Notes: generated by a model not told the origin, from the letters alone. A DNA stretch of 57,498 bases from a bacterium (GCA_030615855.1 JAUWYL010000005.1:1-57498), one strand, 5' to 3'. Numbered from the stretch's first letter, positions 161 to 56,328 are shown. Numbers and translations are program-made.

Positions 161-209
161 CTGTAAACTGTAAACTGGTTACTGTAAACTACCGAGTGAT
201 AACGAGGTA
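161..209. repeat. CTGTAAA/CTGGTTA heptamer array ending in a GA/GA mini-hairpin
   Basis: ctgtaaa-ctgtaaa-ctggtta-ctgtaaa followed by tacc-ga-gt-gata-ac-ga-ggta. Confidence 0.8.
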
Positions 210-213
210 TGAA

Positions 214-1113
214 ATGGCAGTAGATATTAAAAAGGTCCTTAGCAGTTTGAAGGAGAGAAAAGAGACCATGCTCGTCTGGGGATTGGGAGTCGTTGCCCTC
301 TCTCTAGGGGTTTTTATCCTCATCGGTTATATCAGAGGGGTCTCCCCTCCTCCCATCTTGGAGGTGGTTGTCAGAAGAAAGAAACCCCTGAAAAGCAAGG
401 AAGAGATCATTGCCCAGCTCAAGGAGGCCCAGAAGATACCTCCCTTTGTTGACTATCACCATATCCTGACCAAAAACCTCTTCATGCAGTCCAGAATGGC
501 CCGGATTGAAGGGGAGAGGATAGTAGGAGTAGGGGGTTTTGTCCTGAAGGGGATCATAGAGAGACCGGAAACGAGAAGAATCGCCGCCCTCATTCAGGAT
601 CCAGGAGGCAAGGCCCATATTGTGGAGGCTGGCCAGATGATTGGCACCAGTGAAGTGAAGGTAATGGCCATTGACTTCAAGAACCAGAGCGTGGCCCTCA
701 TGGGCAAGGGCTGGAAGAAGCCCCAGGTCATCAGGCTGGCCAGAGAAGCCCTGGGAGAGAAGGCCCTGATCACCTTCCGGCCGAGCGAAAAGAAGAAAGA
801 AGTAGAAAAGCCAAAGGAGGTCACAGGGGAGGAGGCGAAGAAGGCCATGGATGCTGCAAAACGGGCCATGAGTGAGGCCGACTCCAGCATTGTCGATGCC
901 TCTACGGCAACAGATACCTCGGAAGCCATAGAGGAAAGGGACGTTGCTAAAAAGAAGTTAGAGGAGGCTCAGGAAGCATATCTCACCAAGGACTATGCTA
1001 CAACGAGGGATCTGGCTCTTGAGGCGGAGAAGCTGGCCAAGGAAGCAGTGGAATTAGTGGAGGAAGCCGAGACAGAGGCAGAAGAAGAGGAAGAGGAGGA
1101 AGAAGAGGAATAA
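214..1113 (+). CDS. PilP/GspC-like inner-membrane pilus/T2SS assembly protein with charged helical, acidic tail
   Basis: N-terminal TM helix; FVLKGII...AALIQDPGGKAHIVEAGQMIG resembles the PilP/GspC HR domain; same operon as a secretin. ATG 214 follows GAGG. Confidence 0.55.
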   Translation: MAVDIKKVLSSLKERKETMLVWGLGVVALSLGVFILIGYIRGVSPPPILEVVVRRKKPLKSKEEIIAQLKEAQKIPPFVDYHHILTKNLFMQSRMARIEGERIVGVGGFVLKGIIERPETRRIAALIQDPGGKAHIVEAGQMIGTSEVKVMAIDFKNQSVALMGKGWKKPQVIRLAREALGEKALITFRPSEKKKEVEKPKEVTGEEAKKAMDAAKRAMSEADSSIVDASTATDTSEAIEERDVAKKKLEEAQEAYLTKDYATTRDLALEAEKLAKEAVELVEEAETEAEEEEEEEEEE

Positions 1114-1137
1114 AAGTGTGGAGAAAGGAGTAAAATC

Positions 1138-2355
1138 ATGATGAAGAAAATAGTATCAGGAGTTTTATTAATTCTATGGAGCCTTTTATTGAATGTTGCT
1201 ATTTTTGGAGCAGGGGAGGTAGTCGTCGTACCTGCCAGCCTGGATCACTTCTCGGTAACGGCACCCAGTGAGGTTACTGCGGGAAAGCTCTTCCCAGTAA
1301 CCATTACTGCTTGTGATTCCTTCGGGAATATAGTCACTGACTACCGCCTCTCTGGTAAGGGAGTGAAGATAACCACCAGCGGGATGGGGAAGATTGTCCC
1401 AGAGAGGATCGCTCCCTTAGAATTTAAGGATGGGGTAGCTCAGGTGAGCCTCACCTATGATCGGGCGCAGGATATCCTTTTCATCTCTACTGAGATAGAA
1501 GGGAAGGCCAGGGGGAGGAGCAATACCATAACCGTCCTTCCCTCCAAACTGGATCATTTTGTGCTTACCGTTCCCAGGGAGGCCAGGGCAGGGCAGGAGT
1601 TTACCATCTTCATCAGTGCCCGGGATGCCTTTGGGAATATTATCTCTGATTATTCCAGTAGAGGAAAGGAGCTCTCCCTCTTCGCTTCTGGGGAGGGGAG
1701 ACTCAATCCCTCCAAGGTAGAAGTTACCCAATTTAAAGAAGGGGTTACTTCCCTTAACCTCACCTACAATAAAGCTCAGAAGATCACCCTCACCTGTAAG
1801 GAGGAGGGAGAGAAGGCAGAAGGGGTTTCTTCTTCTCTGACCGTAAGGCCAGGGGTTTTCGATCACTTCCTCTTATCCTGTGCTCCTTCTGCCCGAGCCG
1901 GGAAAAGCTTCGAAGCCACCATTACTGCCTGTGATTCCTTCGGGAATGTGGTGACTGACTATCAAGCCACAGGGAAGGGAGCCCTTCTTTCCGTAACAGG
2001 AAGCGGAAAGCTCAATCCTTCCCAGATTCCTGCCTCTCAGTTTATAGATGGAGCGGCCAAGGTCAAGCTCTCCTATGACAGAGCAGAACCCATCACCATT
2101 AGTGCTAAGGAGGCTGTTCTAAAAGCAAGACCGGAGGTAAAAGAGGGGGTTTCCATCACTGTGGCAGGAAGGGAAGTCATGGTTGAGAGGATAGATGGGA
2201 TCAATGGCTGGGCCTACATCAGGGATGAGATAAGGTATGTCAACATCAGGATGGATAGCGATGTTCAAGATGTCTGGAGGGAGGTTCCCAGGGAAAAAAC
2301 CCCGGAGACCTACCAAGCCATTCAGAAACTCTTGAGGAAGAGAGGAGCTCAGTGA
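1138..2355 (+). CDS. Secreted protein with three Ig-like beta-sandwich repeats
   Basis: Signal peptide; three repeats of DHF.(V/L).(A/V)P....AG..F...I.A.D.FGN...DY. Confidence 0.6.
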   Translation: MMKKIVSGVLLILWSLLLNVAIFGAGEVVVVPASLDHFSVTAPSEVTAGKLFPVTITACDSFGNIVTDYRLSGKGVKITTSGMGKIVPERIAPLEFKDGVAQVSLTYDRAQDILFISTEIEGKARGRSNTITVLPSKLDHFVLTVPREARAGQEFTIFISARDAFGNIISDYSSRGKELSLFASGEGRLNPSKVEVTQFKEGVTSLNLTYNKAQKITLTCKEEGEKAEGVSSSLTVRPGVFDHFLLSCAPSARAGKSFEATITACDSFGNVVTDYQATGKGALLSVTGSGKLNPSQIPASQFIDGAAKVKLSYDRAEPITISAKEAVLKARPEVKEGVSITVAGREVMVERIDGINGWAYIRDEIRYVNIRMDSDVQDVWREVPREKTPETYQAIQKLLRKRGAQ

Positions 2356-7196: not shown

Positions 7197-9179
7197 ATGA
7201 GGAAGAATTTAAGAAGATGGCTGATTAGTCTAACACTATTGGCGACTCTGAGTTTAGGGATTGGTCTGGCTCTGGCACAGGAAGAAGAGGCATATTCACC
7301 AGAGGAGGTTGTTCCGATTGTCGAACCTGTAGCTCCGGTACCTGTCAAGCCGACCAACGCTGTTCAGAGCATAGAGGTTGTAGATCTGCCGGAGAAGGTG
7401 AGGATTATTATTACTACCACCCAGCCGGCGGAGTATATCATTGGCAAGGTATATAAGCCAAAGATGCTCTATGTGGACATTCTGAATTCGGTGAATGACC
7501 TTCCCAAGAGAAGGTTCCGGGTGAAGAAGGGACCAGTAAAGAGAATCAGGTCCAGTCAGTATCAGGTCCTTCCCACAGAGATCTCAAGAATTGTGGTAGA
7601 CCTTGATAGGTGGGTCAAACACGAGATAGCCAGGGAGGAGAATAAGTTATACTTAGAATTCTATAAGCCAGAAGTTCTGATTGCCAAGGCCCCACCAGAG
7701 GAGAAGGCCCCTCCTGAAGAAGAGAAAGTTCCTCCTGAAGAAGAGGAGAAGGTTCCCCTTCTTGAGGAGAGGCTGATCAGCGTTTCCTTTACTGATGCTC
7801 CCATGTCTGCGGTATTGAGCTTCTTAGCCGAGATGAGTGGCTACAATATCGTGGCCAGCGCTGAAGTAACTGCCGCGACGGTGACCATAACCCTCAAGGA
7901 TGTTCCGGTCATGACCGCCCTGAATACCATCCTGGAGATGCAGGGCCTGTGGTATAAGAAAGAGAAGAATATCATAAGGGTCATGACCATAGGGGAGTTC
8001 CAGGCCACTTTAGCGGTAAAGGCCGATTTAACCCGGGTATTCGTCCTCCAGCATGCCGATGCCGCAGGCTTAGCTGAGGTTCTGAATAGTGTCCTGGGAG
8101 GAGCAGTAATAAAGAAGGTACCCACAAAAGTTAGCCTCCGCGTTACTGAAAAGAGGGCTGGTGAATTCGCGAGAGCCGTTCAAGCCGCGAAGACCCTTCA
8201 TTTTAAGGGGAAGACCTTCGTCATCGCGGATGTGAGGACAAATTCTTTGATCATCACCACCGATGACCCCAGGAACTTCCTGATGCTTGAGAGGCTAATA
8301 AAGGAACTGGATACCGAGATCCCCCAGGTCCTCTTAGAAGTCATGATTGTTGAGGTGACCCTTGGCCCGGATGATACCAATATTGGTCTGCAGTGGGTCT
8401 GGGGAGATGTCAACCTCCCTGGTGGTCTCGATGGGGTGATGCACTGGGATGAGTTCGATGAGGGGACGGTGCCTGGGGTGACCGGAGCTGATACTGAGGA
8501 CCTCTACACTACAGAGCGTGGCCAGTATAAACTCATTCTCTGGAATGAGCATGTCAAAATACTCTTCCAGGCCATGCAGGAGACCCATAAGGTGGATGTC
8601 CTCTCCACTCCCAGGATTCTCACCCTTAACAACCAACCAGCGATGATTCAGGTAGGTTATGAGTATCCCGTGGTCATAGATGATGACTGGGTCTATAAGG
8701 ATATCGGGATAATCCTGAATATTACTCCTAAGATCAATGAGGCGAAGTTTGTCAACCTCAGCCTGAATCAGGAGATCACAGAGATCTATGGAACGAACAT
8801 CTATGGACTTCCCATATTCTCAAAGCGGATCCTAGAGTCCAGTGGCCTGGTGAAGGATGGTTATACCCTGGTTATTGGAGGACTGATCAAGACCTCCAAG
8901 ATAGATGCCGAGTATATGATTCCCTGGTTGGGTAAGATACCGGGATTGGGTTATCTCTTCAAGAGGAAGGAGAAGAGGACGGAGAATGTGGAGATCATGA
9001 TGTTCATCACTCCCTATGTTCTCACCAGCCCGGGAGAAGGGACGAGGGTGTCCAGGAAACAGGCAAGGGACCTCTCCACAGGGAAGGTCTCAGATAAGGA
9101 CATTCGTGTTCCAGAGGCAAAGATCGAGATACCGGAATTAGAAGAGGCCGAGATACCAGAGATAGAAGAGAAGAAGTAG
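7197..9179 (+). CDS. pilQ: Type IV pilus/T2SS secretin (PilQ-like) with AMIN and N domains
   Basis: Signal peptide; AMIN domain; N0 (ISVSFTDA...); DVRTNSLII; QVLLEVMIVE; STPRILTLNNQPAMI; IPWLGKIPGLGYLFK. Confidence 0.8.
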   Translation: MRKNLRRWLISLTLLATLSLGIGLALAQEEEAYSPEEVVPIVEPVAPVPVKPTNAVQSIEVVDLPEKVRIIITTTQPAEYIIGKVYKPKMLYVDILNSVNDLPKRRFRVKKGPVKRIRSSQYQVLPTEISRIVVDLDRWVKHEIAREENKLYLEFYKPEVLIAKAPPEEKAPPEEEKVPPEEEEKVPLLEERLISVSFTDAPMSAVLSFLAEMSGYNIVASAEVTAATVTITLKDVPVMTALNTILEMQGLWYKKEKNIIRVMTIGEFQATLAVKADLTRVFVLQHADAAGLAEVLNSVLGGAVIKKVPTKVSLRVTEKRAGEFARAVQAAKTLHFKGKTFVIADVRTNSLIITTDDPRNFLMLERLIKELDTEIPQVLLEVMIVEVTLGPDDTNIGLQWVWGDVNLPGGLDGVMHWDEFDEGTVPGVTGADTEDLYTTERGQYKLILWNEHVKILFQAMQETHKVDVLSTPRILTLNNQPAMIQVGYEYPVVIDDDWVYKDIGIILNITPKINEAKFVNLSLNQEITEIYGTNIYGLPIFSKRILESSGLVKDGYTLVIGGLIKTSKIDAEYMIPWLGKIPGLGYLFKRKEKRTENVEIMMFITPYVLTSPGEGTRVSRKQARDLSTGKVSDKDIRVPEAKIEIPELEEAEIPEIEEKK

Positions 9180-9245
9180 TAGAGATTTCAGCGAACGGTT
9201 GCCTGTATTAGGGGTGTGGATGGGTCGTGAGTAGTGGGTCGGGGA

Positions 9246-9315
9246 TGAGTTGTGTGGATGGGGATATATTCCCCACCCTCACCCCCACAACCCGACTCAC
9301 AACACACAACTCACC
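9246..9315. repeat. About 70-bp GT/AC-rich hairpin element, copy 1
   Basis: Near-identical reverse-complement copy at 55042-55112. Confidence 0.75.
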
Positions 9316-9370
9316 CTTATCCCCGATGACTTAAGTAACCCTTCAACGTATAACGTAAAAGGAGGAGTTT

Positions 9371-10492
9371 ATGCGCCGGCCAATAATTGTAGGGCTGGTT
9401 ATCTGTTTATTCCTCTCCCTTTCCTGTGCTTCCACAAAAAGAGAGAAGAAAATTTCGAAGGCCAGGAAAGAGGTGGCCAGTGGCTACTATGAAAATGGAA
9501 GGGCCCATCTTAAAGAGGGCTTCATCATCGATGCCATAAGGGCGTTTGAGAAAGCTATTGAAGAGAATCCAGATAATCTAAAGGCTCACTACTACCTTGC
9601 CTTCTGCTATAAGGATAGGAAATATCCCGGCTTGGCCATAAGGGAATTCCAGGAAGTGGTGAGAATAAATCCCAAGATTACCGTGGCCTATTACCAGCTG
9701 GGAGACCTCTATCTCGGGAGCGGATTAAATGAAGAGGCCATCCTGGCCTATGAGAAGGTCTTGGAACACAAGCCAGAGCATGAAAAGAAGGCTGAGATCG
9801 AAACCACTCTCTTTACCCTCAATTATAATTTGGGAGTAACCCACTATAATAATGGGGAGTATGCCCAAGCAAAAGAGAGTTTCCAGAAAGTTCTGGAGAT
9901 TAAGCCAGAGGAGGAAAGGGTAAAAAAGCTTCTGGAGGAGATAGATGAAATCTTAGGGGTCACTAAACCAAAACCAGTGGTAACCAGAAAAGCCAAGGAT
10001 CTCATAGATCAAGGGATTAAGTATTATAACTTTGGCCAGTATGATACAGCCATCACTGAGTTTCAAAAAGCAGTAGAGAGCGATCCCAAATCTGTTAAGG
10101 CCCACCTCTACTTGGCCTGGGCCTATGAGAAGAAGGGAGAGAAGAAGAAGGCCATTGGGGAGTATCAGAAGATAACCGAGATCGATCCCAATCATCTGGA
10201 TGCCCATTATCGATTGGGAAAATATTATGATAGTGTGGGCCAGAAGGCTGAGGCCATAAAAGAGTATGAGAGGGTCCTATCTTTAAAACCGAGTAAGGAG
10301 AAACTTGAGAAGATCTCCCCTGTTCTCTATGCCTTCTACTATGAACAGGGGATGAAGGCCTATAACAAGAAGAAATACCAAGAAGCAAAAGAGCGTTTCC
10401 AGAAAGCACTAAAGGTCAAACCAGGTGATCCAGAGGCTACTGAGATGCTTTCCACAGTGAAAATGCTCCTCGAGGAGAAAGGGAGAGAATAG
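9371..10492 (+). CDS. TPR-repeat lipoprotein
   Basis: Lipobox LSLSC; multiple TPR motifs; GGAGGAG SD. Confidence 0.8.
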   Translation: MRRPIIVGLVICLFLSLSCASTKREKKISKARKEVASGYYENGRAHLKEGFIIDAIRAFEKAIEENPDNLKAHYYLAFCYKDRKYPGLAIREFQEVVRINPKITVAYYQLGDLYLGSGLNEEAILAYEKVLEHKPEHEKKAEIETTLFTLNYNLGVTHYNNGEYAQAKESFQKVLEIKPEEERVKKLLEEIDEILGVTKPKPVVTRKAKDLIDQGIKYYNFGQYDTAITEFQKAVESDPKSVKAHLYLAWAYEKKGEKKKAIGEYQKITEIDPNHLDAHYRLGKYYDSVGQKAEAIKEYERVLSLKPSKEKLEKISPVLYAFYYEQGMKAYNKKKYQEAKERFQKALKVKPGDPEATEMLSTVKMLLEEKGRE

Positions 10493-10508
10493 GAAGGAGT
10501 AGGAAGAT

Positions 10509-11753
10509 ATGTCTCCTGTCAAAAAAAAGTTTATCCTAAGACTGGAAGATAAACTGATCATTCTTGTTGTCACCCTGATTATCGGTATTATGGTTGCTGT
10601 GACCATAGTTACCATCAGACGCGAACAGCAGGGGATGGAACTTAGCATGAGAGCCAAGGCAAAGGACCACTCCGAGATCTTAGCAATAAGCAACGTGGAA
10701 CAACTCTTGAAAAAAGACTATGTTGCCTTGGGGAGTGCGGTGGAGGAAGTAATTAAAAGAGACCCGGATATCGCCTATGTCGCCATCTATGATGAGGAGG
10801 GTCGCACCATGACCCGGAGCCGCAGCACTGCCTTAAGCGAAGAAACCTTCTCCTCAATCGATAGACTGCTCAAGGAATCCATTAAGATCACCCTGGCTAG
10901 TAAGATGGAGAGGATCCAGGTAGGGAGGGAAGAGACTCTCTACGATACTATCGTTCCCATCAAGGTTCCAGAACTTAAGGCTGCGCCAGTGGGAGCGGTG
11001 CGCATCGGGTTCACTACCGCACGCCTTAGGGAGAAGGCGGCTGAGGTCCGGAATCAGAATATCATGCTCACCGTGATCTTCATCTGTCTGGGCATGGTGG
11101 GAGCCCTGGTCATGGGGAAGATATTGAATAGACAGATCAGCGATCTCATCGCTGCCCGCACCGCCCCTGCCCGGGAAGAGATTTTACCCGGGGAGGAATA
11201 CGATCTGGAGAAGGAGTTGAAGAGGTATCTCCCGGAGTATGGGGAGAGGTTCGATGAGGTATATAAGAAACTCTCTCCCCAGGATCTCTTCGCCCTCTTC
11301 AAGGCAGCAAGGGAGATACCGACCGCCCTGAGCCTCAAAGAGGCCCTGAGGCTCAGCGCCCAGACCATCTCTGACATTATGAAGGTCTCGGAACTGGTCA
11401 TCTTCTTGAAGGATGAGAAGACCAGGGAAGTGAGAGCCAGGATGGGCTATGATATAAGTGGCCCCATGAGTGAGAAGACCTTGGCAGATATCAAGGTGGA
11501 GGAAGGAAGGGGGGAGGTCTGGATGGCCTCGGAGTTTGGAACCTCCTCTCCCATAGACACTCCCAAGCTAGGAAGTGGCATCGTTTCTCCCTTAGTAAGT
11601 AAGGAAAAGACCATTGGGGTGATTGAAATCAGGAGCCGACTATCCGGGGAGCCCTTTGGGAAGAAGGACCAATTACTCTTAGAACTTCTGGGGGGACTCA
11701 TCGCTACTTCCGTTGAGAAGGCGCAGGCCATAGAAGAAAGAAAGAAAGAATAG
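10509..11753 (+). CDS. Two-TM membrane sensor with extracytoplasmic Cache-like and cytoplasmic GAF-like domains; no kinase or cyclase domain
   Basis: Two TM helices flanking DPDIAYVAIYDEEG...VGAVRIGF; C-terminal PLVSKEKTIGVIEI...F...D..LL GAF pattern. Confidence 0.6.
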   Translation: MSPVKKKFILRLEDKLIILVVTLIIGIMVAVTIVTIRREQQGMELSMRAKAKDHSEILAISNVEQLLKKDYVALGSAVEEVIKRDPDIAYVAIYDEEGRTMTRSRSTALSEETFSSIDRLLKESIKITLASKMERIQVGREETLYDTIVPIKVPELKAAPVGAVRIGFTTARLREKAAEVRNQNIMLTVIFICLGMVGALVMGKILNRQISDLIAARTAPAREEILPGEEYDLEKELKRYLPEYGERFDEVYKKLSPQDLFALFKAAREIPTALSLKEALRLSAQTISDIMKVSELVIFLKDEKTREVRARMGYDISGPMSEKTLADIKVEEGRGEVWMASEFGTSSPIDTPKLGSGIVSPLVSKEKTIGVIEIRSRLSGEPFGKKDQLLLELLGGLIATSVEKAQAIEERKKE

Positions 11754-11850: not shown

Positions 11851-11907
11851 AAGATAGATACAGATGGGGATGGGATCCCTGATACCTACGTTATTGAGGA
11901 AAAATAG
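11851..11907 (+). pseudogene. Relic 3' end of a DxDxDG-motif gene related to the downstream ComEA-like paralogs
   Basis: Reads KIDTDGDGIPDTYVIEEK*; matches KVDTDGDGIPDTWV (12779 ORF) and KIDTDGDGIPDTFII (14831 ORF). Confidence 0.55.
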
Positions 11908-11908
11908 A

Positions 11909-12760
11909 GTGGGCAAATCCCTTCTTAGAAAGCTACTCCTTACTCTTCTCATCGCCTCATTCCTTCTCCTAACCGTCTTCTCCCTCTCTGCCCAGAATTA
12001 CCTCCGGGTTACCTTCATCGACGTTGGGGAAGGGGATAGCTGTCTCATCCAGACCCCGGGAGGGAAGAATATCATAATCGATGGAGGGAAGACTAACCAG
12101 GGAAAGAAACTCCTCTCCTTTCTCAAGAAGAAGAGAATAAGGAAGATAGATACTATGGTGGCTACCCACCCAGATATGGACCACATCGGAGGACTATTGG
12201 CCATCTTAGATAGCAATATCGAGATCAAGAATGTTTTAGACTCTGGCCATAAGCATACCTCCTATGCCTATCAAGACTTCCTGCTCAAGGTGGCGGAAAG
12301 GAAAGATATAAAGTACTACCAACCGAGGGCGGGTCAGATATTCGATTGGGGGGAGGGATTGAAGGTCCAGGTCCTGAGCCCAGCCCATCTCTTTCACAAC
12401 GCCAACGACTCCTCCATAGTCATCAAACTCACCTATGGCTTAACCTCCTTCCTGTTTACTGGAGATGCTGGCTATCCCGCAGAGGACGAGATGGTAGCCA
12501 ACTTCAGGAAAGGGCTAAAGAGCACCATCCTGAAGGCCGGCCACCATGGAGCAAAGACCTCCACCTCTTCCTCTTTCTTAAATTATGTCAGACCAAGAGT
12601 AGCCATAATCAGCGTGGGCCCCAACTCCTACGGCCATCCCAATAAAGGGGTTCTCGATAGGCTTCAGGAGATAGGGGCCAAGGTCTATAGAACGGATGAG
12701 AGAGGGAATATTACCATAACTACTGATGGAAAGAAGTGCTGGATAGAGACTAAGCGATAG
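11909..12760 (+). CDS. Exported ComEC/Rec2-type metallo-beta-lactamase-fold hydrolase
   Basis: FIDVGEGDS, THPDMDHIGG, NDSSIV, LFTGDA, GHHGA, NSYGHP; signal peptide. GTG 11909 follows GAGG (the ORF track starts at 11864). Confidence 0.8.
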   Translation: MGKSLLRKLLLTLLIASFLLLTVFSLSAQNYLRVTFIDVGEGDSCLIQTPGGKNIIIDGGKTNQGKKLLSFLKKKRIRKIDTMVATHPDMDHIGGLLAILDSNIEIKNVLDSGHKHTSYAYQDFLLKVAERKDIKYYQPRAGQIFDWGEGLKVQVLSPAHLFHNANDSSIVIKLTYGLTSFLFTGDAGYPAEDEMVANFRKGLKSTILKAGHHGAKTSTSSSFLNYVRPRVAIISVGPNSYGHPNKGVLDRLQEIGAKVYRTDERGNITITTDGKKCWIETKR

Positions 12761-12778
12761 GGAAAGAGAGTGAAATAA

Positions 12779-13375
12779 ATGTCCTTTTCTTCTGGTCAGA
12801 GAGTGGTGGTTATCATCCTTTTCCTGGCTTTTCTCTCTGGAGGAGGGGTTTTGGGCTATAGAATTATGAAGGAGTATCCAGAAATTACTTCCCAGCAGAT
12901 AGAAGTCTTCCCTGAAATTACCCCCCCACCTATTACTCCCCCACCTATTATTCCCCGACCTATTGAAGAACCGGTCTCACCCAGACCAGTAGTGGTGACA
13001 GAGAAGACTCCCATCAGGAAACTGGCGAGAAGGGAGAAAGAAAAACTCCAGAAGGCCTTGAAGATAAATATCAATACCGCCTCTTTAGAAGAATTGCAGA
13101 AGATACCCTATATCGGTTCTAAAAGGGCAGAGAAGATTATCAGTGGCCGACCCTACCAAAGTATTGAAGATATAATGAATGTTCATGGGTTTGGGGAAAA
13201 AACCCTTGAGAAGATAAAGGATTACATTACCGTTACCGGCAAGGGATTAGCGGAATATAAGCCTCCCGCGGAGAGGGTTAAATCTATAGAAGAAAGTAAA
13301 AAGAAGGTAAAAATCGTAAAAGTAGATACTGATGGGGATGGCATTCCCGATACCTGGGTCACCAAGCCCCAATAA
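12779..13375 (+). CDS. ComEA-like helix-hairpin-helix DNA-binding protein
   Basis: TM anchor, Pro-rich linker, KININTASLEELQKIPYIG...V.GFGEKTLEKI; C-terminal DTDGDG. Confidence 0.85.
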   Translation: MSFSSGQRVVVIILFLAFLSGGGVLGYRIMKEYPEITSQQIEVFPEITPPPITPPPIIPRPIEEPVSPRPVVVTEKTPIRKLARREKEKLQKALKININTASLEELQKIPYIGSKRAEKIISGRPYQSIEDIMNVHGFGEKTLEKIKDYITVTGKGLAEYKPPAERVKSIEESKKKVKIVKVDTDGDGIPDTWVTKPQ

Positions 13376-13488
13376 ATAGTAGGAGAGTAAAAGAGTAAGA
13401 AAGTAGGAAAGTAGGCATTTCAATTGGAAAATTAGCACTTTTCTACTTTCCTTCTTTTATACTTTCTTACTCCCGAACGGAGTGAGGG
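13376..13488. repeat. Inverted 8-mer (AAAGTAGG / TTCTACTT-like) arrays plus GA/GA hairpin
   Basis: Purine-rich arm then pyrimidine-rich arm; ends atactttcttactcccgaacggagtgagg, nearly identical to 45232-45259. Confidence 0.75.
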
Positions 13489-13492
13489 TCAA

Positions 13493-14578
13493 ATGGTTGA
13501 GGCCTATGGAGTAGAGAAAGGGCCAGAAAAAAAGTCAAATAAAGGATTCTTCTCTTTAGTCATTATTCTGCTCCTACTTGCTTCCTCTACCTGGGGATTG
13601 GCCTTAAATGCCAACTGGCGCCAGGTGCTTTATGCTCCCTTTAAGGAGGCCTCTCTTCCCAGCCCTGTAGAGACTGATAAGGAGGCCCCTCTTCCCAGTC
13701 CTGTAGAGATTGAAGAGGAGGCCTTTCTTCCCAGCCCCATAGAGATTGAAGAGGTATATAAATCACCCGATGAGTTGACCATTACCTACTTCGATGTCGG
13801 CCAGGGATTGGCCCACCTCATCCAGATCCCTTCAGGAAAGGTAATTATCTATGATGCCGGAGAGGGAACGGACCCGGATCATAAGTATACCAAGTATCGC
13901 AATGCGGGAGCGAAGGCCATCCTTCCTGTCTTAAGAGGAGAACATATCAAGAAAATTGATGTTATTGTTGGTTCCCATCCCCACAGCGACCACCTGGGAG
14001 GCTTCCTCTCCATATTGAGTAGCAACGAGTTCGAGATAGGGGAGGTATTAGACCCCGGTATGGTCCATCCCACCCCCACCTATAATGCTTTTCTGGAACT
14101 GATAGAGAAGAAGGAGATGCCCTATCGGATTGTGAGGGATGGGGATATCCTGGATTGGGGTCCGGATGTCTTCGTCCAGATCCTCTCTCCTCCCAAAGGC
14201 GAATTATGGGGTCACGCCAATGAAAACTCGGTGACCATAAAGTTAGTCTATGGCAAAACCAGCTTCCTCTTCACGGGAGATATTGAGAAGAGAGCCATCA
14301 ATAGACTCATCGATGTGTATGGCCCGCGGATAAAGGCAGATGTTGTTCAGATTCCCCATCATGGCTCCAATACCTCAAACGATAGGGACTTCATTAGATT
14401 AACAGGAGCCGCTCACGCTGTAACCAGCGGTACTGGAGGACCACCATTTGGTCATCCTACCCCAGAGACCGTGAGGAGGTGGAGGGAGATCGGGGCCCAG
14501 GTTCACCACACCCATCTGGATGGAAATATCACCATTATTAGTAATGGGAAGAATATAAGCGTAAGGACTATGAGGTAG
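13493..14578 (+). CDS. Second exported ComEC/Rec2-type MBL-fold hydrolase
   Basis: YFDVGQG, SHPHSDHLGG, NENSV, LFTGDI, PHHGS, PFGHP; 3x12-aa Pro/Glu repeat after the TM helix. Confidence 0.8.
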   Translation: MVEAYGVEKGPEKKSNKGFFSLVIILLLLASSTWGLALNANWRQVLYAPFKEASLPSPVETDKEAPLPSPVEIEEEAFLPSPIEIEEVYKSPDELTITYFDVGQGLAHLIQIPSGKVIIYDAGEGTDPDHKYTKYRNAGAKAILPVLRGEHIKKIDVIVGSHPHSDHLGGFLSILSSNEFEIGEVLDPGMVHPTPTYNAFLELIEKKEMPYRIVRDGDILDWGPDVFVQILSPPKGELWGHANENSVTIKLVYGKTSFLFTGDIEKRAINRLIDVYGPRIKADVVQIPHHGSNTSNDRDFIRLTGAAHAVTSGTGGPPFGHPTPETVRRWREIGAQVHHTHLDGNITIISNGKNISVRTMR

Positions 14579-14596
14579 AAAGGAGGTCTAACGGGA

Positions 14597-14835
14597 ATGA
14601 ACCCCGCACCTCCTACTGTATTTATCATATTTATCTTTTGAAAATAGAAGAAGCAAGAACTGGATTGAGTTTACGCCGTTTAGACTCTAATCTACCAACA
14701 TATGAGAATAACTAATCTATTTAGAGTCGGTATCAAAACTATTGGAAAAACTACAGAACGATATTTGAGAGTCTAACGGGGTTTACTAAGTATAATACAG
14801 AATCTTATTGAATCATAAGGGAGGTGCGGGGTGAA
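14597..14835. mobile_element. Nested miniature inverted-repeat elements at a start codon
   Basis: Outer 13-bp IR accccgcacctcc / ggaggtgcggggt with TGAA duplication; inner element 14674-14781 with TTTA duplication. Confidence 0.7.
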
Positions 14836-15457
14836 GAAGAATAGGAGGTGGTGGGTGAGTCTGGCCATCGTAGCCGTTCTCTTAGTGGGAGTAATCGGGA
14901 TTATCACCTACAGAGAGAGGTCTAAGAGGGCAAGATGGACAGAGGAGCCAGGGGAAGCAATCTATGAGGAGATGGTTCCTCCAGAGGAGGCGATGCCTTT
15001 AGAAGAACCAGAGATCGTGGAGGCCCCACCAGTGGTTCAGGTTCCCCCTCCTCGGGAACCAGTCCAAATAAAAGTCCCGGTAGCGGAAGAGAGGTTAGTG
15101 GAGGTCAAGGTGGAGGAGACTGCACCTCCCACCAAGGCCCCTTCCTTGGTGATGGAGAAGATAGATACCGATGGGGATGGGATTCCCGACACCTTTATTA
15201 TTAAGGGGGAGCCGGGCGCTGCTCCAACTCCGGTCAAGAAGGCAGCCAAGAAGAAGAGGGCGGCTGCGGCTGGGGGGAAGATCAGTATCAACACCGCAAG
15301 TGCCAAGGAATTGGAGACCCTGCCTGGTGTTGGTCCAGCTACGGCAAAGAAGATTATCGATGGCCGTCCCTATGGAAGCATTGAAGATATTACGAATGTG
15401 AAAGGGATTGGAGAGAAGTCATTTGCCAGGATGAAGAACCTAATTACCGTTGAATAA
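14831..15457 (+). CDS. ComEA-like HhH DNA-binding protein
   Basis: TM anchor, Pro/Glu linker, DTDGDG, KISINTASAKELETLPGVGPATAKKII. Confidence 0.85.
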   Translation: MKKNRRWWVSLAIVAVLLVGVIGIITYRERSKRARWTEEPGEAIYEEMVPPEEAMPLEEPEIVEAPPVVQVPPPREPVQIKVPVAEERLVEVKVEETAPPTKAPSLVMEKIDTDGDGIPDTFIIKGEPGAAPTPVKKAAKKKRAAAAGGKISINTASAKELETLPGVGPATAKKIIDGRPYGSIEDITNVKGIGEKSFARMKNLITVE

Positions 15458-15498
15458 CACGGATCATCGCGGATTACAACACGAATAGGCACAGATTC

Positions 15499-15563
15499 AT
15501 CTGTGGCAATGCTTAACTATTTATGCTCTCTAGGATGCTAACGAAGTGCATCCTATAATCTGT
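15499..15563. repeat. About 65-bp duplicated element, copy 1
   Basis: Second copy at 16389-16453; contains hairpin taggatgc-N9-gcatcct. Confidence 0.75.
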
Positions 15564-15617
15564 GATATTTTGCCCACGCAGGAGACATACTCAAAATCCG
15601 CGTTTAAGGAAGAGGAA

Positions 15618-16253
15618 ATGGAAAAGAGTAAGAGGATGAGTATTATCGTAGTGGGAATCCTCTTAGTGGCCCTTATGATCGGTGTGGCCTATGTTGCCTC
15701 AGTTGCTGGAGTACCCCCCATATCGAGCATCACTCAGGTAAGCGTTGGCCAGAGGGCAACCCTGAAGGGAAACATAACCAGTGTCCGGGTCTTCAAAAAG
15801 GGAAGGACGATAAAAATCAGCGATGGAACAGGAAGCATAGATATCCTCATCTGGAATAACCTTTTCTACCAGATACCACAGAAAGCTTCTTTAATTCAAG
15901 GAACGAGCATCCAAGTAAGTGGAGAGATCGGTTCCTACAAGGGAAGACTTCAGATAAAACCAAGAAGTCCTTTTGATATTCGGATCGCAGGTGCTGCTTC
16001 CGCTGCTCCGGCCATTGCTCCCGCTGTCGTGCCCGCTACTCCAGTGGCTGTCCCGGTGCCAGTAACTACGGGGAAGATTAATATCAATACCGCCTCCCAA
16101 TCCGAATTAGAGAGCCTGCGCGGGATCGGACCGGCCAAGGCCCAGCTCATCATCGCTGGCCGTCCCTACGCCACGGTTGATGACCTGACCGAGGTGAAGG
16201 GCATCGGACCCAAGACCCTTGAGAAGTTGAGGCCTCGGATCACTGTCGATTAA
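15618..16253 (+). CDS. ComEA-like protein with OB-fold and HhH domains
   Basis: TM anchor; OB-fold ISDGTGSIDILIW...IQVSGEIGSYKGRLQI; KININTASQSELESLRGIGP. ATG 15618 follows GAGG. Confidence 0.8.
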   Translation: MEKSKRMSIIVVGILLVALMIGVAYVASVAGVPPISSITQVSVGQRATLKGNITSVRVFKKGRTIKISDGTGSIDILIWNNLFYQIPQKASLIQGTSIQVSGEIGSYKGRLQIKPRSPFDIRIAGAASAAPAIAPAVVPATPVAVPVPVTTGKININTASQSELESLRGIGPAKAQLIIAGRPYATVDDLTEVKGIGPKTLEKLRPRITVD

Positions 16254-16388
16254 ACGCGAATCCACGCGAACTGGAAAGCAAAGACGAAAGACAATTAGGA
16301 CACGAATGAGCGCGAATAGTAGATACTGGATGCTGGATCCTTGATCCTTGATCCTTATCCTTGGTTACGTCTGTCTTTTAGATCTGTG

Positions 16389-16453
16389 ATCCGTGGCAAT
16401 GCTTAACTATTTATACTCTCTAGGATGCCAGCGAAGCGCATCCTGTAATTTGT
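16389..16453. repeat. About 65-bp duplicated element, copy 2
   Basis: Matches 15499-15563 with a few substitutions. Confidence 0.75.
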
Positions 16454-16490
16454 TTCTTATCTGTGTGAATTCGTGTTTAAAGGGAGAAGT

Positions 16491-17285
16491 ATGTTTAAAC
16501 TCTCTCATTTGGAACGAGTCGTTTTCTTCTCTCTCCTAGGAGCCTTAACTCTGGGAAGCATTCTCTATATGGTGAAGATACTCCTCACCCCCCTTCCCGA
16601 AATCCTCCCCCCTCCAGAAAGGGAGGTGAGACGGGAAGTCATTCCGCAACCAGTGGTCCTTCCTGAGCCTGAGATCCTCCCTGAGCCAGAGATCATTACC
16701 AAGCCGCCTTCCGAGCCAACCCCAGAAATGCCTCCCGCTCCAAAGGAAATTACTATTCGCATCACGGGAGCAGTGAATAAGCCCGGGGTCTATTGTTTCA
16801 TTGAGGGGGCAAAGATCGTTGATGCAGTAAAGGCTGCGGGAGGGGCAAGGGGGGACGCCCTTCTGGATGTTATGCGGCTTGCCCAACCCCTGGAGCATGG
16901 CTCGGAGATTGTCATCTCCCGAAAGTTCGATGCCCAAGCCTTCAGAAGGAAACTCCTCTCCTATGGACCGGAGCATGTCTACACCACAGAGGAGCTAATG
17001 CTGGCCTATGGTAGGCCTGAAGAAGAGATAAAGAAGAAAAAGGAAGAGAGACCCAAAGAGGAGGAAGAAAAACCCAAGCCAAGTGAAGAGGGGAAGATAA
17101 ATATCAATACCGCAGCAAAGGAAGAGCTCCAGACCCTGCCCGGTATTGGACCAAAGAAAGCAGAGGCCTTCATAAGATATAGGGAGGAACATGGCCCTTT
17201 CCAAGAGACCTCTGATATCACGAAGATCCATGGCATCGGGCAGAAGACCTACGAGAACCTGAAGGATAAGATTACCGTGGATTAG
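16491..17285 (+). CDS. comEA: ComEA with SLBB and HhH domains
   Basis: ITGAVNKPGVY...DAVKAAGG (SLBB); KININTAAKEELQTLPGIGPKKA...HGPF...GIGQKT. Confidence 0.85.
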   Translation: MFKLSHLERVVFFSLLGALTLGSILYMVKILLTPLPEILPPPEREVRREVIPQPVVLPEPEILPEPEIITKPPSEPTPEMPPAPKEITIRITGAVNKPGVYCFIEGAKIVDAVKAAGGARGDALLDVMRLAQPLEHGSEIVISRKFDAQAFRRKLLSYGPEHVYTTEELMLAYGRPEEEIKKKKEERPKEEEEKPKPSEEGKININTAAKEELQTLPGIGPKKAEAFIRYREEHGPFQETSDITKIHGIGQKTYENLKDKITVD

Positions 17286-17294
17286 GAGAGAAGA

Positions 17295-17969
17295 GTGTTT
17301 AAACTATCCCGTTCTGAGCAGTTGGTCATTCTTTTCCTTGTAGGAGTGATCCTGGTGGGAGGTGCTGTGGCCTCTGTTAAGAAGTATCTGGAAAATAAGG
17401 AGAAAGGGCATCTCCTGACCGCAGAAAGCATTACCTCGCTTGAAGAAGAAGTTGCCCCTAAGAGGATTATCATCCACATTACGGGGGCAGTGAAGAGGCC
17501 CGGGGTCTATCACTTTAAAGAGGGAGCAAGAGTCATCGATGCCGTGAAGGCAGCTGGTGGACCAGAGGAGGATGCCCTTCTCGACATCCTGAACCTCGCT
17601 CAACCCATGGAAGATGGCTCCAAGATCGTTGTCTCCCAGAAGTTCGATGCCCAGGAGTTTAAAAAGAGGCTTCTCTCCCATGGACCAGAGCATGTCTATA
17701 CCACAGAGGAGTTAAAGTTAGCCTATGGTGAGATGAAAGAAAAAGAAGAAAGGAAACTCAAAAGAAAGATAAAAGAAGAAGTAGCCCCAAAAATAAACAT
17801 AAACACTGCCACCCTCCAAGAGATTCAAACTCTGCCCAACATCGGTCCAAAGAAAGCAAAAGCCATCATCGCTAACCGCCCCTATTCAAGCATTGAAGAG
17901 ATTACCAAGATTCATGGGTTTGGCCCTAAAATTTATGGGGTATTGAGGGATAAAATTACCGTGGAATGA
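17295..17969 (+). CDS. comEA: ComEA paralog with SLBB and HhH domains
   Basis: HITGAVKRPGVY...DAVKAAGG; KININTATLQEIQTLPNIGP; close paralog of the upstream gene. Confidence 0.85.
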   Translation: MFKLSRSEQLVILFLVGVILVGGAVASVKKYLENKEKGHLLTAESITSLEEEVAPKRIIIHITGAVKRPGVYHFKEGARVIDAVKAAGGPEEDALLDILNLAQPMEDGSKIVVSQKFDAQEFKKRLLSHGPEHVYTTEELKLAYGEMKEKEERKLKRKIKEEVAPKININTATLQEIQTLPNIGPKKAKAIIANRPYSSIEEITKIHGFGPKIYGVLRDKITVE

Positions 17970-17972
17970 AGA

Positions 17973-20396: not shown

Positions 20397-20520
20397 GCCC
20401 CGAAGGACAAGCCTACGGGGCAGGCAGGTGAAATAGTGAAACGGAGAAGGGGGGAAACGGAGAAAGGGAGAAGAATTACCGATTCACCGTCTCTCCGATT
20501 CCCCGATTCAAAAAAGCGGG
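20397..20520. repeat. CCCCG..CGGGGCAGGCAGG hairpin plus inverted 8-mer arrays (AAACGGAG / CCGATTC)
   Basis: gccccg-N13-cggggc-aggcagg flanked by GTGA; related to 44635-44673. Confidence 0.65.
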
Positions 20521-20530
20521 GAGGTAGGAG

Positions 20531-28497: not shown

Positions 28498-28521
28498 ACC
28501 TACTTAAAGGAGGAAAAAGAA

Positions 28522-35248: not shown

Positions 35249-35252
35249 AGAT

Positions 35253-35385: not shown

Positions 35386-35403
35386 CTTTTGCAGGAGCAG
35401 AGA

Positions 35404-40411: not shown

Positions 40412-40532
40412 TATGGGTAATGGGATGTGAGATGTGGGATTTGGGATTTTTTATCGCACATCACATATCACACATCGCCTTTATCTATCTTCCCCTATTT
40501 TTTTACTGTTCACAGATCACAGTTCACAGATT
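40392..40532. repeat. Two-layer nested inverted heptamer arrays
   Basis: Outer cagtgat/cagtaat...ctgttca/cagttca; inner gggatgt/gagatgt...atcgcac/atcacat. Confidence 0.7.
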
Positions 40533-40545
40533 ATAAGGAGCAAGT

Positions 40546-43806: not shown

Positions 43807-43867
43807 TAATCAAACTGTTAACTGGTTACTGTTAACTGGTTACTGACCGAACGATAGTGAGGTCACC

Positions 43868-45129: not shown

Positions 45130-45139
45130 AGCGAAGCAA

Positions 45140-45259
45140 GAAGTAATAAAGTAGGAGAGCAGAAGAGAAGAAAAGTAGGAACTGAAAGAGACAAAGCCAA
45201 AAGAGAAATACTTTCTTACTTTCCTACTTTGATACTTTCTTACTCCGAACGAAGTGAGG
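45140..45259. repeat. Inverted 8-mer arrays plus GA/GA hairpin (same family as 13376-13488)
   Basis: aaagtagg...ctttcttactttcctacttt...ccgaacgaagtgagg. Confidence 0.75.
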
Positions 45260-46272: not shown

Positions 46273-46290
46273 TGATCGGTGGAATAGAGG

Positions 46291-46376
46291 TTTACAGTAA
46301 CCAGCGAACAGTAACCAGTCTTTTCTATTCACTTCACTGTAAACTGGTTACTGGTTACTATCCGAGCAAAGCGAGG
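46291..46376. repeat. Inverted CAGTAAC/CTGGTTA arrays plus GA/GA hairpin
   Basis: tttacag-taaccag-cgaacag-taaccag ... ctgtaaa-ctggtta-ctggtta, then ccgagcaaagcgagg. Confidence 0.8.
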
Positions 46377-46381
46377 GTGAA

Positions 46382-51533: not shown

Positions 51534-51712
51534 AAATGCGAATAATTGTGAATATAAAATGGGAATAATAAACTGGGACGCGAATACTCGCGAATTTATT
51601 CGCGTAGTTTCGCGGTTTTTTTTAGATTCGCGTTGCTTTCCGCCAAATCCGTCCGACCGTCCGGAAGAGACGGACGGACGGAGCGGACAGGCGTGTCTGA
51701 GCGGAGCGAAGA

Positions 51713-53698: not shown

Positions 53699-53842
53699 GG
53701 CTACAAACGGCTACAAACGGTTACTAACGGTTACGAATTTGGTTACTAACAGTTACTAAAAATTGTGGCAACCGATAGTAACCGCGAAGCATAGTAACTA
53801 ATAGTAACAGCGAAGCGTAGTAACTAGCGACTGAAGGGAGCT
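53699..53842. repeat. Inverted ~10-mer GTTACTA/TAGTAAC array, copy 3 (opposite orientation), plus GA/GA hairpin
   Basis: tagtaacagcgaagcgtagtaac at 53802-53824 is the reverse complement of 28375-28397. Confidence 0.8.
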
Positions 53843-54950: not shown

Positions 54951-55252
54951 CCAGTTAACAGTTTACAGTAAAAAAATAAGAGAGCATCAGATAACCAGAT
55001 TATTAGATAAAGAAAGACAGATATCAAAATACCAGGATAAAGGTGAGCTGTGGGTTATGTGTCGGGTTGTGGGGGGTGAGGGTGTAGAATATATCCCCAT
55101 CCACACAACTCACTACCCATCCCTACCCTCAATCAATCTGGGATTCTGAATTCTTATTCTGAGACTCTGATGTTCTGATAATCTATAATTTTGCTGGTTA
55201 CTGTTCGCTGGTTACTGTAAACTATCTAGACTGATCACCGTTCACTGATTAC
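54939..55252. repeat. Three-layer nested inverted-repeat region
   Basis: Outer CAGTAAC/CTGGTTA arms, middle CAGAT/TCTG arms, inner 70-bp element shared with 9246-9315. Confidence 0.75.
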
Positions 55253-55276
55253 AATATCACCTATAGGAGGTTTGAA

Positions 55277-56236
55277 ATGGATACCTATTTAGGAATCGAT
55301 GTGGGATCAATAAGTACCAATTTGGCAGTCATCGATGAGGAAAAAAGAGTTTTAGCCTGGGAGTATCTCTTGACTGGGGGAAGACCAATAGAAGCGGTTC
55401 AGAAGGGCCTGAGGGGGATGGAGAAAAAGTTTGCAAAGGGACTTGAGATAAAGGGGGTGGGCTCTACAGGGAGTGCCCGGCACCTAACCGGAATACTGGT
55501 GGGAGCAGATACGGTGAAGAGCGAGATCATTGCTCATGCCGTGGCTGCCTCCCATCTCATCCCGGAGATTAATACCATCTTCGAGATCGGGGGACAAGAT
55601 TCAAAGATCATCATCGTTCGGGATGGAGTAGTGGTGGACTTCGCCATGAATACCATTTGTGCTGCGGGCACTGGCTCCTTTCTGGACCATCAGGCCCAGA
55701 GGCTGGGAGTTCCCATAGAGGAGTTCGGGGATTTGGCTACCAGAGCAAAAGCCCCCACCAGGATCGCGGGAAGGTGCACGGTATTTGCCGAATCAGATAT
55801 GATCCATAAACAACAGACCGGACATGCTACAGAGAATATCGTGGCTGGTCTCTGTCAGGCCTTAGTGAGAAATTACTTAAATAATGTGGGCAAGGGGAAG
55901 GATATCCTTCCACCGGTCGTCTTCCAGGGGGGGGTGGCAGCGAATAAGGGAATGAAGGCTGCCTTTGAGGAGGAGCTAGGATATGAGGTTATTGTCCCAG
56001 AATATTATCATGTTATGGGAGCTATCGGTGCCGCCATACTTGCCCAGGAGACGATAGTTCAGACGAAGAAGACGAAATTCAAGGGCTTTAAGGTGAGTGA
56101 GGTAGATTATAAGACCCGCTCCTTCGAATGTACCGGCTGCCCCAACCTCTGCGAGGTAATTGAGGTCTTGATGAATGGAGAGGTTATCTCAAGATGGGGG
56201 GATCGGTGCGGAAAGTGGGAGGTGTTGGAAAAGTGA
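55277..56236 (+). CDS. Acyl-CoA dehydratase activase (BadF/BadG/BcrA/BcrD ATPase)
   Basis: GIDVGSIST, EIGGQDSK, CAAGTGSF, RCTVFAES, C-terminal CTGCPNLC. Confidence 0.9.
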   Translation: MDTYLGIDVGSISTNLAVIDEEKRVLAWEYLLTGGRPIEAVQKGLRGMEKKFAKGLEIKGVGSTGSARHLTGILVGADTVKSEIIAHAVAASHLIPEINTIFEIGGQDSKIIIVRDGVVVDFAMNTICAAGTGSFLDHQAQRLGVPIEEFGDLATRAKAPTRIAGRCTVFAESDMIHKQQTGHATENIVAGLCQALVRNYLNNVGKGKDILPPVVFQGGVAANKGMKAAFEEELGYEVIVPEYYHVMGAIGAAILAQETIVQTKKTKFKGFKVSEVDYKTRSFECTGCPNLCEVIEVLMNGEVISRWGDRCGKWEVLEK

Positions 56237-56240
56237 AAGT

Positions 56241-56328
56241 AGGCTACAGGCTGCAGGCCACATGCTACAGGCTGCAAAAACTTGAAGCCTGGGGCTTGAG
56301 GCTTGAGGCTTGAGAGAGCGGAGCGAAC
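56241..56328. repeat. CAGGCTR / GCTTGAG heptamer arrays plus GA/GA hairpin variant
   Basis: aggctac-aggctgc-aggccac-atgctac-aggctgc ... gcttgag x3, then gagagcggagcgaac. Confidence 0.7.

Follow-up and report, generated by a model that had tools for sequence, protein, structure and literature searches.

MITE-like sequences (those resembling miniature inverted-repeat transposable elements), such as ERIC and the Correia elements, lie between genes, are co-transcribed, and alter the expression of neighboring genes, while repetitive extragenic palindromic (REP) elements with their RAYT proteins and the subterminal hairpins of IS200/IS605 elements are short, strand-specific imperfect palindromes in spacers. 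In Beggiatoaceae, cyanobacteria, and Bacteroidetes, a different kind of repeat, the heptamer TAACTGA, is found in direct copies a short distance upstream of start codons; these repeats overlap the ribosome site, mostly without a Shine-Dalgarno (SD) sequence, and the parts of that account drawn on here describe no hairpin between repeat and start (MacGregor 2015, PMC4679880). Small hairpins are known as DNA from the mini-hairpins GCGNAGC and GCGNNAGC (Hirao; PMC13037366), where, in the part of that source used here, GNA loops closed by C-G are extremely stable and the natural uses given are primase sites and N4 virion polymerase promoters. Here we analyze a hairpin carrying two facing GA dinucleotides (the GA mini-hairpin) that lies directly before start codons in a 57,498-nucleotide (nt) stretch of bacterial DNA (GCA_030615855.1 JAUWYL010000005.1:1-57498; hereafter the window), from a candidate phylum known from metagenomes only. 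Selection acts on the structure of this hairpin, which is coupled in two registers to the SD sequence and to start codons and which travels with cassettes of short tandem repeats. We put at roughly one in two the probability that it acts in RNA, as a structured module for ribosome binding that forms the end of each cassette and allows the gene behind it to be initiated again.

Structure and conservation of the hairpin

An earlier note on this DNA, made from the sequence alone, had listed eight hairpins, and all eight are present as it wrote them (Table 1). Their distances to the start codon, measured from the longest outer stem, are 4, 4, 2, 5, 2, 0, 4, and 1 nt, within the 0 to 5 nt that the note had given, and the start codons behind them match the N termini of orthologues in relatives. 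The copy at 56314 to 56328 had been described as weaker, which agrees with its poor outer stem, the lack of a predicted hairpin in RNAfold, and its absence from the orthologous locus of one relative (L001). Relatives were identified by a TrpC search of genomes, which returned five (L001, L002, L003, L004, and L007) with 89 to 93% amino acid identity, all of them metagenome-assembled genomes and one titled “bacterium UBP18_UBA7526”; the TrpC matches that follow have at most 55% identity and come from other phyla. The loci of the relatives comprise 63.9 kb, and 75 unrelated TrpC-match loci (1.249 Mb) were used as controls.

An alignment of 22 copies from the window and the relatives defines a hairpin of 15 to 23 nt with an outer stem of 2 to 6 bp, a tandem G-A/A-G mismatch, a 2-bp inner stem, and an R-N(-N)-A loop. 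Alignment columns G5, A6, A12, G15, and A16 are invariant, and both GA dinucleotides are present in 22 of 22 copies, flanked by pairs that covary. All four GNA loops are represented; the loop is GGA in 6 copies, AAA in 5, and either AAA or AATA in 6, and the closing pair is T-A or T-G in 6 of the 22. Each of the six stem pairs changes on both sides in this alignment; columns 4 and 17 are paired in 21 copies with four pair types, columns 7 and 14 covary too, and G-U wobbles occupy 7 cells among the four core pairs. The covariation score is 0.677, compared to 0.305 in shuffles (0 of 500 as high) and 0.01 to 0.14 with slid partners. Paired cells make up 87.9% of the total versus 67.2% in shuffles, a percentage that is inflated because the 22 copies were initially picked by a scan that required pairing.

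Unbiased evidence for the structure is provided by the comparison of orthologous spacers and by the model test described below. The hisB-hisA spacers of the window and L002 agree in 59 of 64 positions, and among the five that differ are a G-to-A and a C-to-T change at paired stem positions; in the trpD-trpC spacer of the same two genomes an inner G-C pair has become A-T, a compensatory change. The earlier note had proposed a hairpin with compensatory changes around invariant GA dinucleotides, and these double changes, together with the covariation across the 22 copies, support it.

Enrichment before start codons

A hairpin of this size might arise by chance or reflect the SD composition of a genome rich in purines, and a loose pattern (G-U pairs allowed, loops of 3 to 5 nt) does match 43 times on the plus strand and 8 times on the minus strand of the window, mostly in coding sequence. 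Since the loose pattern is this common by chance, the bare pattern is no evidence; we dropped it as a statistic and tested position and model score instead. The strict motif occurs in 7 of 53 upstream zones of 32 nt, which together represent 2.9% of the window. Dinucleotide shuffles of these zones gave a mean of 0.45 and a maximum of 4 (2,000 shuffles), none reaching 7. The earlier note had allowed that the motif could prove no more frequent than chance once SD composition is controlled for; with the last 12 nt (SD and spacer) held fixed, the mean was 0.74 and the maximum 5, and again none of 2,000 shuffles reached the observed 7. GA/GA is also the sole mismatch pair found at more than two upstream zones in the same architecture (7, with 2 for the next best). 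Across the window and relatives (121 kb) it had 18 matches versus 6 for the next mismatch type, and in the controls (1.25 Mb) it falls outside the 12 commonest mismatch types.

The note had further proposed a covariance model and a scan of relatives. A model trained on no sites other than the eight of the window (R1) scores these at 20.9 to 25.6 bits, and the next window match has 11.9 bits, a gap of about 9 bits that indicates the sites form a discrete class. Outside the training set, R1 recovered 14 matches of at least 17.8 bits in the 63.9 kb of the relatives (∼219 per Mb), 13 of them on the gene strand in spacers and 11 ending 0 to 5 nt before a start codon, compared to 5 such matches in the 1.249 Mb of controls with default filters (∼4 per Mb) and 1 in 98.7 kb with filters off. 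Together with the compensatory changes in orthologous spacers, the failure of any shuffle to reach the observed count, the score gap, and the contrast with the controls make an origin by chance or composition so improbable that we give it almost no weight.

Coupling to the Shine-Dalgarno sequence

The gap between hairpin and start is 0 to 5 nt in 20 of 23 copies, and 19 of the 20 copies near a start have an SD word within the hairpin, GAGG or GGAG, that ends 4 to 7 nt before the start, a working distance (10 nt in the remaining copy). The claim that the hairpin doubles as the SD site is thus borne out. Two registers can be distinguished. In the first, the hairpin lies 1 to 5 nt before the start, and GAGG is formed by the second GA and the 3′ outer stem; in the second, no gap separates hairpin and start, and a GGA loop gives rise to the SD word GGAG. 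The second register is found at the ATP-grasp gene in the window and in L001, at murA in L001, and in the weak copy at 56314. At the window's ATP-grasp gene (hairpin 51696 to 51712), GGAG consists of the loop plus the next base and ends 6 nt before the start; the orthologous copy in L001 is at 15106 to 15122. The hairpin carries the only SD word of its spacer, in the 3′ arm or in the loop, whereas spacers that have repeat arrays without a hairpin have a plain, strong SD instead. This coupling to the SD and the start codon in two registers argues for action in mRNA.

A site that overlaps the SD could also be an operator, at which a lineage-specific RNA-binding protein reads the tandem G-A pairs and the R-N-A loop and represses or activates translation of a regulon. 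The alignment has the look of a protein-read motif in that nothing varies in the GA dinucleotides or in the last A of the loop and the rest is variable. We nonetheless consider this unlikely, as the downstream genes have no common theme (hisA, trpD, trpC, trpF, murA, ATP-grasp, ComEC-like, and unknown genes), the presence of the hairpin at the same gene varies by species (murA 2/5, hisA 4/6), which would be odd for a regulon, and the lack of a 3-nt bulge means that there is no kink-turn site. In a kink-turn, tandem sheared G-A pairs stand next to such a bulge and are bound by L7Ae-type proteins. The likeness to the hairpin lies in the two 5′-GA-3′ dinucleotides that face each other between two Watson-Crick helices, with a sheared geometry that is putative here; we rejected the kink-turn because the GA follows the outer stem with no unpaired base in between and because the flanking pairs 4-17 and 7-14 covary. 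A riboswitch was likewise rejected, given downstream genes without a common pathway and the lack of an Rfam family match, as was a CsrA-type site, CsrA preferring GGA loops that occur in only 6 of the 22 copies. A scan of the window with Rfam 15 at gathering thresholds returned three tRNAs only, with no family at the hairpin sites; at E values up to 5 no match overlapped a hairpin, and weak microRNA-like matches covered the array stem at 13374 to 13476.

The overlap also raises the possibility that the SD is masked, with the hairpin itself or a helix involving the last array unit as the cover, and is released by temperature or by upstream translation. Within the hairpin, pairing takes up half of the SD word, and the copies at 13472 and 45245 can form a longer helix over the SD, in which the loop and 3′ arm pair with the last array unit. 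RNA thermometers of the ROSE and fourU types precede heat-shock or virulence genes and pair the SD with an anti-SD stretch that is U-rich or conserved. Here, U-rich anti-SD stretches are absent from the 22-copy alignment, in which the 5′ arm is C-C-G-A-like, and the downstream genes are housekeeping biosynthetic ones; in addition, the hairpins are too weak to block initiation strongly, and the alternative helix is available in only 2 of the 8 window copies. A masking switch or thermometer therefore seems to us decidedly improbable. For these two copies, which belong to one cassette family, we observed that the last array unit and 5′ outer stem are complementary to the loop and 3′ arm (13464 to 13488 and 45237 to 45259), and the modeled alternative helix of 6 to 8 bp covering the SD is a possible two-state switch.

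Association with repeat cassettes

About 20 spacers of the window are filled with tandem repeats of 7- to 10-nt units (periods 7, 8, and 10) of many unit types, and the unit types at the same spacer differ among species. The arrays are mostly inverted pairs, sometimes nested, and as RNA they fold into long imperfect stems. In the window and the relatives, the hairpin is restricted to array-bearing spacers, and its presence at a given gene varies (Table 1). Where hisA, trpD, or trpC lacks the hairpin, the genes abut, overlap, or lie ∼13 nt apart, and where murA lacks it the spacer has arrays and a plain SD. The cassette between trpD and trpC, for example, is absent from L001 and L007, in which the trpD stop codon abuts the trpC start.

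Several cassettes can be assigned to one family, as the cassette at 13376 to 13471 is of the same family as that at 45130 to 45244, which in turn matches L003 8802 to 8891 and L003 10787 to 10855. In L003, a 69-nt cassette separates trpC and trpF, which overlap in the window and in L001; the hisI-trpD cassettes of both the window and L003 can be aligned to it, central loop included. In L007 there is an inverted array-plus-hairpin unit of the family found before murA in L001, with no start codon after it. The L003 insertion and the inverted L007 unit show that the hairpin and its array move together. The four junctions compared have neither a target-site duplication nor a fixed target word, and the flanking gene ends are remodeled there. 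A second hairpin at the other cassette end was also not found, and of the 22 R1 matches of at least 17.8 bits in the window and relatives, 21 lie on the sense strand and 1 on the opposite strand. The earlier note had regarded the hairpin as the recognition end of the repeat cassettes; its place at the start-proximal end and its movement with the arrays in L003 and L007 support its being a cassette end, and recognition by an enzyme is the part that found no support.

In five whole-spacer folds the RNA stems ranged from −28.7 to −40.2 kcal/mol (z-scores between −1.9 and −4.8), and in three of the five the hairpin lies 0 to 1 nt after the array stem. The hairpin at 13472 to 13488 begins 0 nt after its long array stem and is kept in the minimum free energy (MFE) structure of the whole spacer, and that at 46359 to 46379 adjoins an array stem whose base includes the trpD stop codon. 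The hairpin at 45245 to 45259 has an alternative pairing with the last array unit in the folds; that at 53826 to 53842, with an inner stem of a C-G pair and a U-G wobble, is missing from the whole-spacer MFE.

Promoter-like and terminator-like sites between 40300 and 57498 are no more frequent than in shuffles. The his-trp hairpin spacers contain no sigma-70-like promoter and no intrinsic terminator, and from their sequence they are therefore probably operon-internal. The hairpin at 51696 may instead head a transcript: the tRNA-Lys/Glu/Val cluster is followed, within positions 51534 to 51695, by a short hairpin pair and an 8-T run (terminator-like, 51600 to 51623) and then by arrays, with the hairpin next downstream.

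A possible disrupted ninth copy begins at 57376. Its layout is a 5′ half, a 22-nt perfect palindrome (57388 to 57409) that appears to be an insertion, and a 3′ half-like piece; R1 did not pick it up. The L001 orthologue of the gene that starts at 57424 has neither the palindrome nor a GA hairpin-like sequence. Elsewhere in the window, a gene for a 122-amino-acid “23S rRNA intervening-sequence/four-helix-bundle” protein (PF05635; 23475 to 23843) stands between two heptamer arrays, with 5.4 copies at 23431 to 23468 and 4.6 copies at 23851 to 23882; by eye, these arrays could pair with one mismatch per unit, which would place the gene in the loop of an array stem.

RNA or DNA

The proposed fold is the MFE structure of 20 of 22 copies with RNA parameters and of 7 of 22 with DNA parameters, the DNA tables having no special mini-hairpin bonus. 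This bears on a different reading, in which the hairpin is a single-stranded DNA (ssDNA) element, a cassette recognition end for a strand-specific enzyme (an HUH/Y1 transposase, RAYT-like, or primase-like) that copies or moves the cassettes, and the SD content is merely what selection demands of inserts before genes. The evidence for movement described above, namely the L003 trpC-trpF insertion, the inverted L007 unit, and presence or absence among species at the same spacer, fits this reading, as does an identical hairpin-bearing 24-mer in two unrelated phyla (see below), which suggests mobility. Nearly all of the ∼53 genes of the window are on the plus strand and the GC skew is +0.12, and the sense strand is for this reason probably also the lagging-strand template. 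In 11 of the 22 copies, a G-N(-N)-A loop is closed by C-G, which is the type of mini-hairpin reported, in the part of the source used here, as very stable in DNA (PMC13037366).

Other observations make the ssDNA reading fairly unlikely. The earlier note had named an ssDNA/HUH-type enzyme as an example, and comparison of 52 window proteins to NCBIfam and of 13 of those to Pfam revealed no transposase, RAYT, or HUH protein, a search that covered the 57 kb and not the proteins of the relatives, and such an enzyme could act in trans. The hairpin occurs at one cassette end only, the junctions show no duplication or fixed target word, the stems contain G-T wobbles, and DNA parameters predict the fold in a minority of copies, with the proviso on mini-hairpin bonuses given above. 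Neither the narrow start gap nor the two-register fit to the SD is required by a role in DNA. We also set aside an N4-type DNA hairpin promoter or primase site: the N4 promoter hairpin forms on the template strand, whereas the purine mismatches here are on the sense strand, and a transcript initiated beyond the hairpin would not include an SD that lies within it.

Look-alikes in unrelated phyla

Three of the five control matches to R1 are one sequence (in L046, L055, and L063). One and the same 24-mer is present in L046 and L055, which belong to different phyla, and its hairpin consists of an outer stem of 5 bp, GA, GC, a GAA loop, GC, and GA; the hairpins in L063 and L058 are close variants of it. 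These look-alikes indicate that the architecture is wider than this lineage, though the enrichment is confined to the lineage. The L046 hairpin is one arm of a longer palindrome, and the L063 hairpin adjoins a tRNA gene. Rfam gave no match at these loci. Literature matches to an 11-mer of the cross-phylum hairpin included no title on repeat elements and are probably primers.

Other features of the window

The window has a G+C content of 45.7% and a purine-rich plus strand, and it contains ordinary chromosomal genes (polA, rho, prfA, prmC, murA, hisD, hisB, hisA, hisI, trpD, trpC, trpF, and purA), the three tRNAs, and a cluster of ComEA- and ComEC-like genes. This competence-type cluster (11864 to 20396) is unusual in having five ComEA-like paralogues, one full-length ComEC, and two short ComEC/MBL-domain genes. 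In L002, no trpF follows trpC; the ∼3 kb at 7477 to 10522 look coding, are without long plus-strand open reading frames, and have weak tblastn matches to the window's CoA-activase-like genes, and they could be a frameshifted region, a rearrangement, or a misassembly.

Table 1. Hairpins, repeat cassettes, and related sites (window coordinates unless a locus is named; scores from R1; MFE as RNA, in kcal/mol)
Feature	Position	Strand	Start codon and gene	Details
GA mini-hairpin	190..209	+	4 nt before ATG 214; unknown 299-aa protein	4-bp outer stem, GA, GT/AC, GATA loop, GA; 23.8 bits; MFE −5.1; GAGG ends 6 nt before start
GA mini-hairpin	13472..13488	+	4 nt before ATG 13493; ComEC/MBL-like gene	25.6 bits
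GA mini-hairpin	43844..43865	+	2 nt before ATG 43868; hisA	5-bp outer stem; 24.6 bits; MFE −8.4
GA mini-hairpin	45245..45259	+	5 nt before ATG 45265; trpD	23.6 bits
GA mini-hairpin	46359..46379	+	2 nt before ATG 46382; trpC	24.0 bits
GA mini-hairpin	51696..51712	+	abuts ATG 51713; ATP-grasp protein	24.5 bits
GA mini-hairpin	53826..53842	+	4 nt before GTG 53847; DUF2229/HGD-D-like protein	22.1 bits
Weak GA hairpin copy	56314..56328	+	1 nt before ATG 56330	outer stem mostly unpaired; 20.9 bits; in training set
Possible disrupted ninth copy	57376..57423	+	0 nt before ATG 57424	judged by eye
Cassette body, inverted short tandem-repeat arrays	13376..13471	+		ends where hairpin begins; MFE −40.2, z −4.78
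Single heptamer array, hisB-hisA	43807..43843	+		precedes hairpin; identical in L002
Cassette body, hisI-trpD	45130..45244	+		purine-rich array, central loop, pyrimidine-rich array
Cassette body, trpD-trpC	46273..46358	+		inverted heptamer arrays
Array-filled spacers, examples	9180-9370, 13376-13471, 20397-20530, 28373-28521, 35249-35388, 40412-40545, 54951-55276
Hairpin at hisA				4/6 genomes
Hairpin at trpC				4/6 genomes
Hairpin at trpD				3/6 genomes plus one decayed copy
Hairpin at murA				2/5 genomes
Cross-phylum GA mini-hairpin	L046 3265-3283	+
Cross-phylum GA mini-hairpin	L055 17257-17275	−
Cross-phylum GA mini-hairpin	L063 7721-7739	−
Cross-phylum GA mini-hairpin	L058 near 20000			minus-strand coordinate 734

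Discussion

The reading that we favor is that the cassettes are dispersed, fast-evolving intergenic inserts and that the hairpin is their last module, a cis-acting mRNA element. In the transcript, the inverted arrays would fold into a long stem, with the mini-hairpin 0 to 1 nt beyond it. The hairpin would keep the SD in a small, easily opened local fold that is insulated from the repeat arms, and it would thereby restore initiation for a gene that the insert has separated from its upstream partner. The invariant G-A pairs may tune the stem to be stable yet meltable, or they may be read by the ribosome or by a protein; protection of a processed 5′ end is a further candidate role.

Several observations weigh against this reading. 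As RNA the hairpins are weak (−0.1 to −8.4 kcal/mol, with 2 of 22 not predicted), and GNA/GNNA mini-hairpins are far less stable as RNA than as DNA according to the part of the source used here (PMC13037366). A different pairing wins in two of the five whole-spacer folds. Not every copy is placed as expected, as three of them are not ribosome sites. Two hairpins in L004 (2947 to 2961 and 4087 to 4101) are 36 and 43 nt upstream of the starts of trpD and trpC, and the copy at L007 8397 to 8416 (minus strand) is inverted within an array spacer with no start after it. The near-identical hairpins in L046, L055, L063, and L058 are noncoding, and none precedes a start codon. Because the genes are co-oriented, the sense strand is indistinguishable from the lagging-strand template, and the insulating and initiation-restoring roles are ones that we infer. 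As to the surroundings of the misplaced copies, the extra hairpins of L004 have G-C/G-C outer stems and each is followed by a regular SD-bearing copy, forming tandem pairs, while the L007 copy is located in a 230-nt array spacer after trpC, beside a perfect G+C-rich hairpin.

A more speculative proposal, which we judge unlikely to hold, is that array stem and hairpin together form a shunt-like translation bridge over the mobile insert. The inverted arrays would zip up the 60 to 330 nt of insert RNA and bring the upstream stop codon and the hairpin to the base of one stacked helix, where terminating ribosomes could be handed over to the hairpin-borne SD. The trpD-trpC fold, with its stop codon within the stem base and the hairpin starting 0 nt after the stem, has this arrangement. 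As part of the same proposal, the occurrence of an identical 24-mer in unrelated phyla means that the GA mini-hairpin could be a signal read by a conserved factor, one that is widely recognized and so far undescribed.

If the favored reading is correct, the GA mini-hairpin would be a new and very small structured RNA motif, combining a tandem G-A mismatch with covarying stems, that serves as a general ribosome-binding module and not as a sensor. It would also point to a genome that tolerates, and perhaps exploits, rampant cassette insertion in tightly coupled operons because each insert brings its own start signal. As a compact and portable element, it could be used to test how local structure around the SD sets initiation.

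Comparison with known systems

No description of a hairpin of this type was found in the literature searched by text, which consisted mostly of titles and the beginnings of abstracts and did not cover subscription journals. The REP/RAYT and IS200/IS605 palindromes resemble it in being short, imperfect, strand-specific, and located in spacers. They differ in that the GA mini-hairpin is coupled to the SD and stands 5′ of genes with a single orientation and at only one end, with no HUH gene among the window proteins; hairpins at both ends or in both orientations were not observed, as 21 of 22 copies lie on one strand at the start-proximal end.

For the cassette as a whole, MITE-like co-transcribed elements are the nearest kind. 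Both are small and noncoding, have inverted-repeat arms, occupy operon spacers, are present or absent in close relatives, and form RNA stems, and the cassettes have dispersed copies with such arms and empty sites in L001 and L007. No target duplication was seen at the four junctions, and there is no transposase among the window proteins. The arms of the cassettes, unlike those of MITE-like elements, are made of 7- to 10-nt tandem repeats of many unit types, and one end is a distinct, covarying, SD-supplying hairpin.

The DNA mini-hairpins GCGNAGC and GCGNNAGC, as presented in the part of the source used here, share with 11 of the 22 copies a C-G closing pair and a G-N-A or G-N-N-A loop with a possible sheared G-A pair (PMC13037366). 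The exact heptamer, however, is found in only 3 of the 22, and the 5 AAA loops and 6 T-A or T-G closing pairs depart from it; the hairpin described here is defined instead by the additional tandem G-A mismatch in its stem and by its SD position.

The TAACTGA heptamer repeats, on the parts of the published account drawn on here, are the nearest described phenomenon (PMC4679880). In both cases heptamers of similar units occur in spacers, in the forward orientation, near the starts of unrelated genes, and relatives differ in 7-nt steps. The arrays described here are mostly inverted pairs with the SD in a GA hairpin, and they are followed by that hairpin or by a plain SD, in place of abutting the start as TAACTGA-type repeats do. 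The cassettes may provide a link to the unexplained start-proximal heptamer repeats of other phyla.

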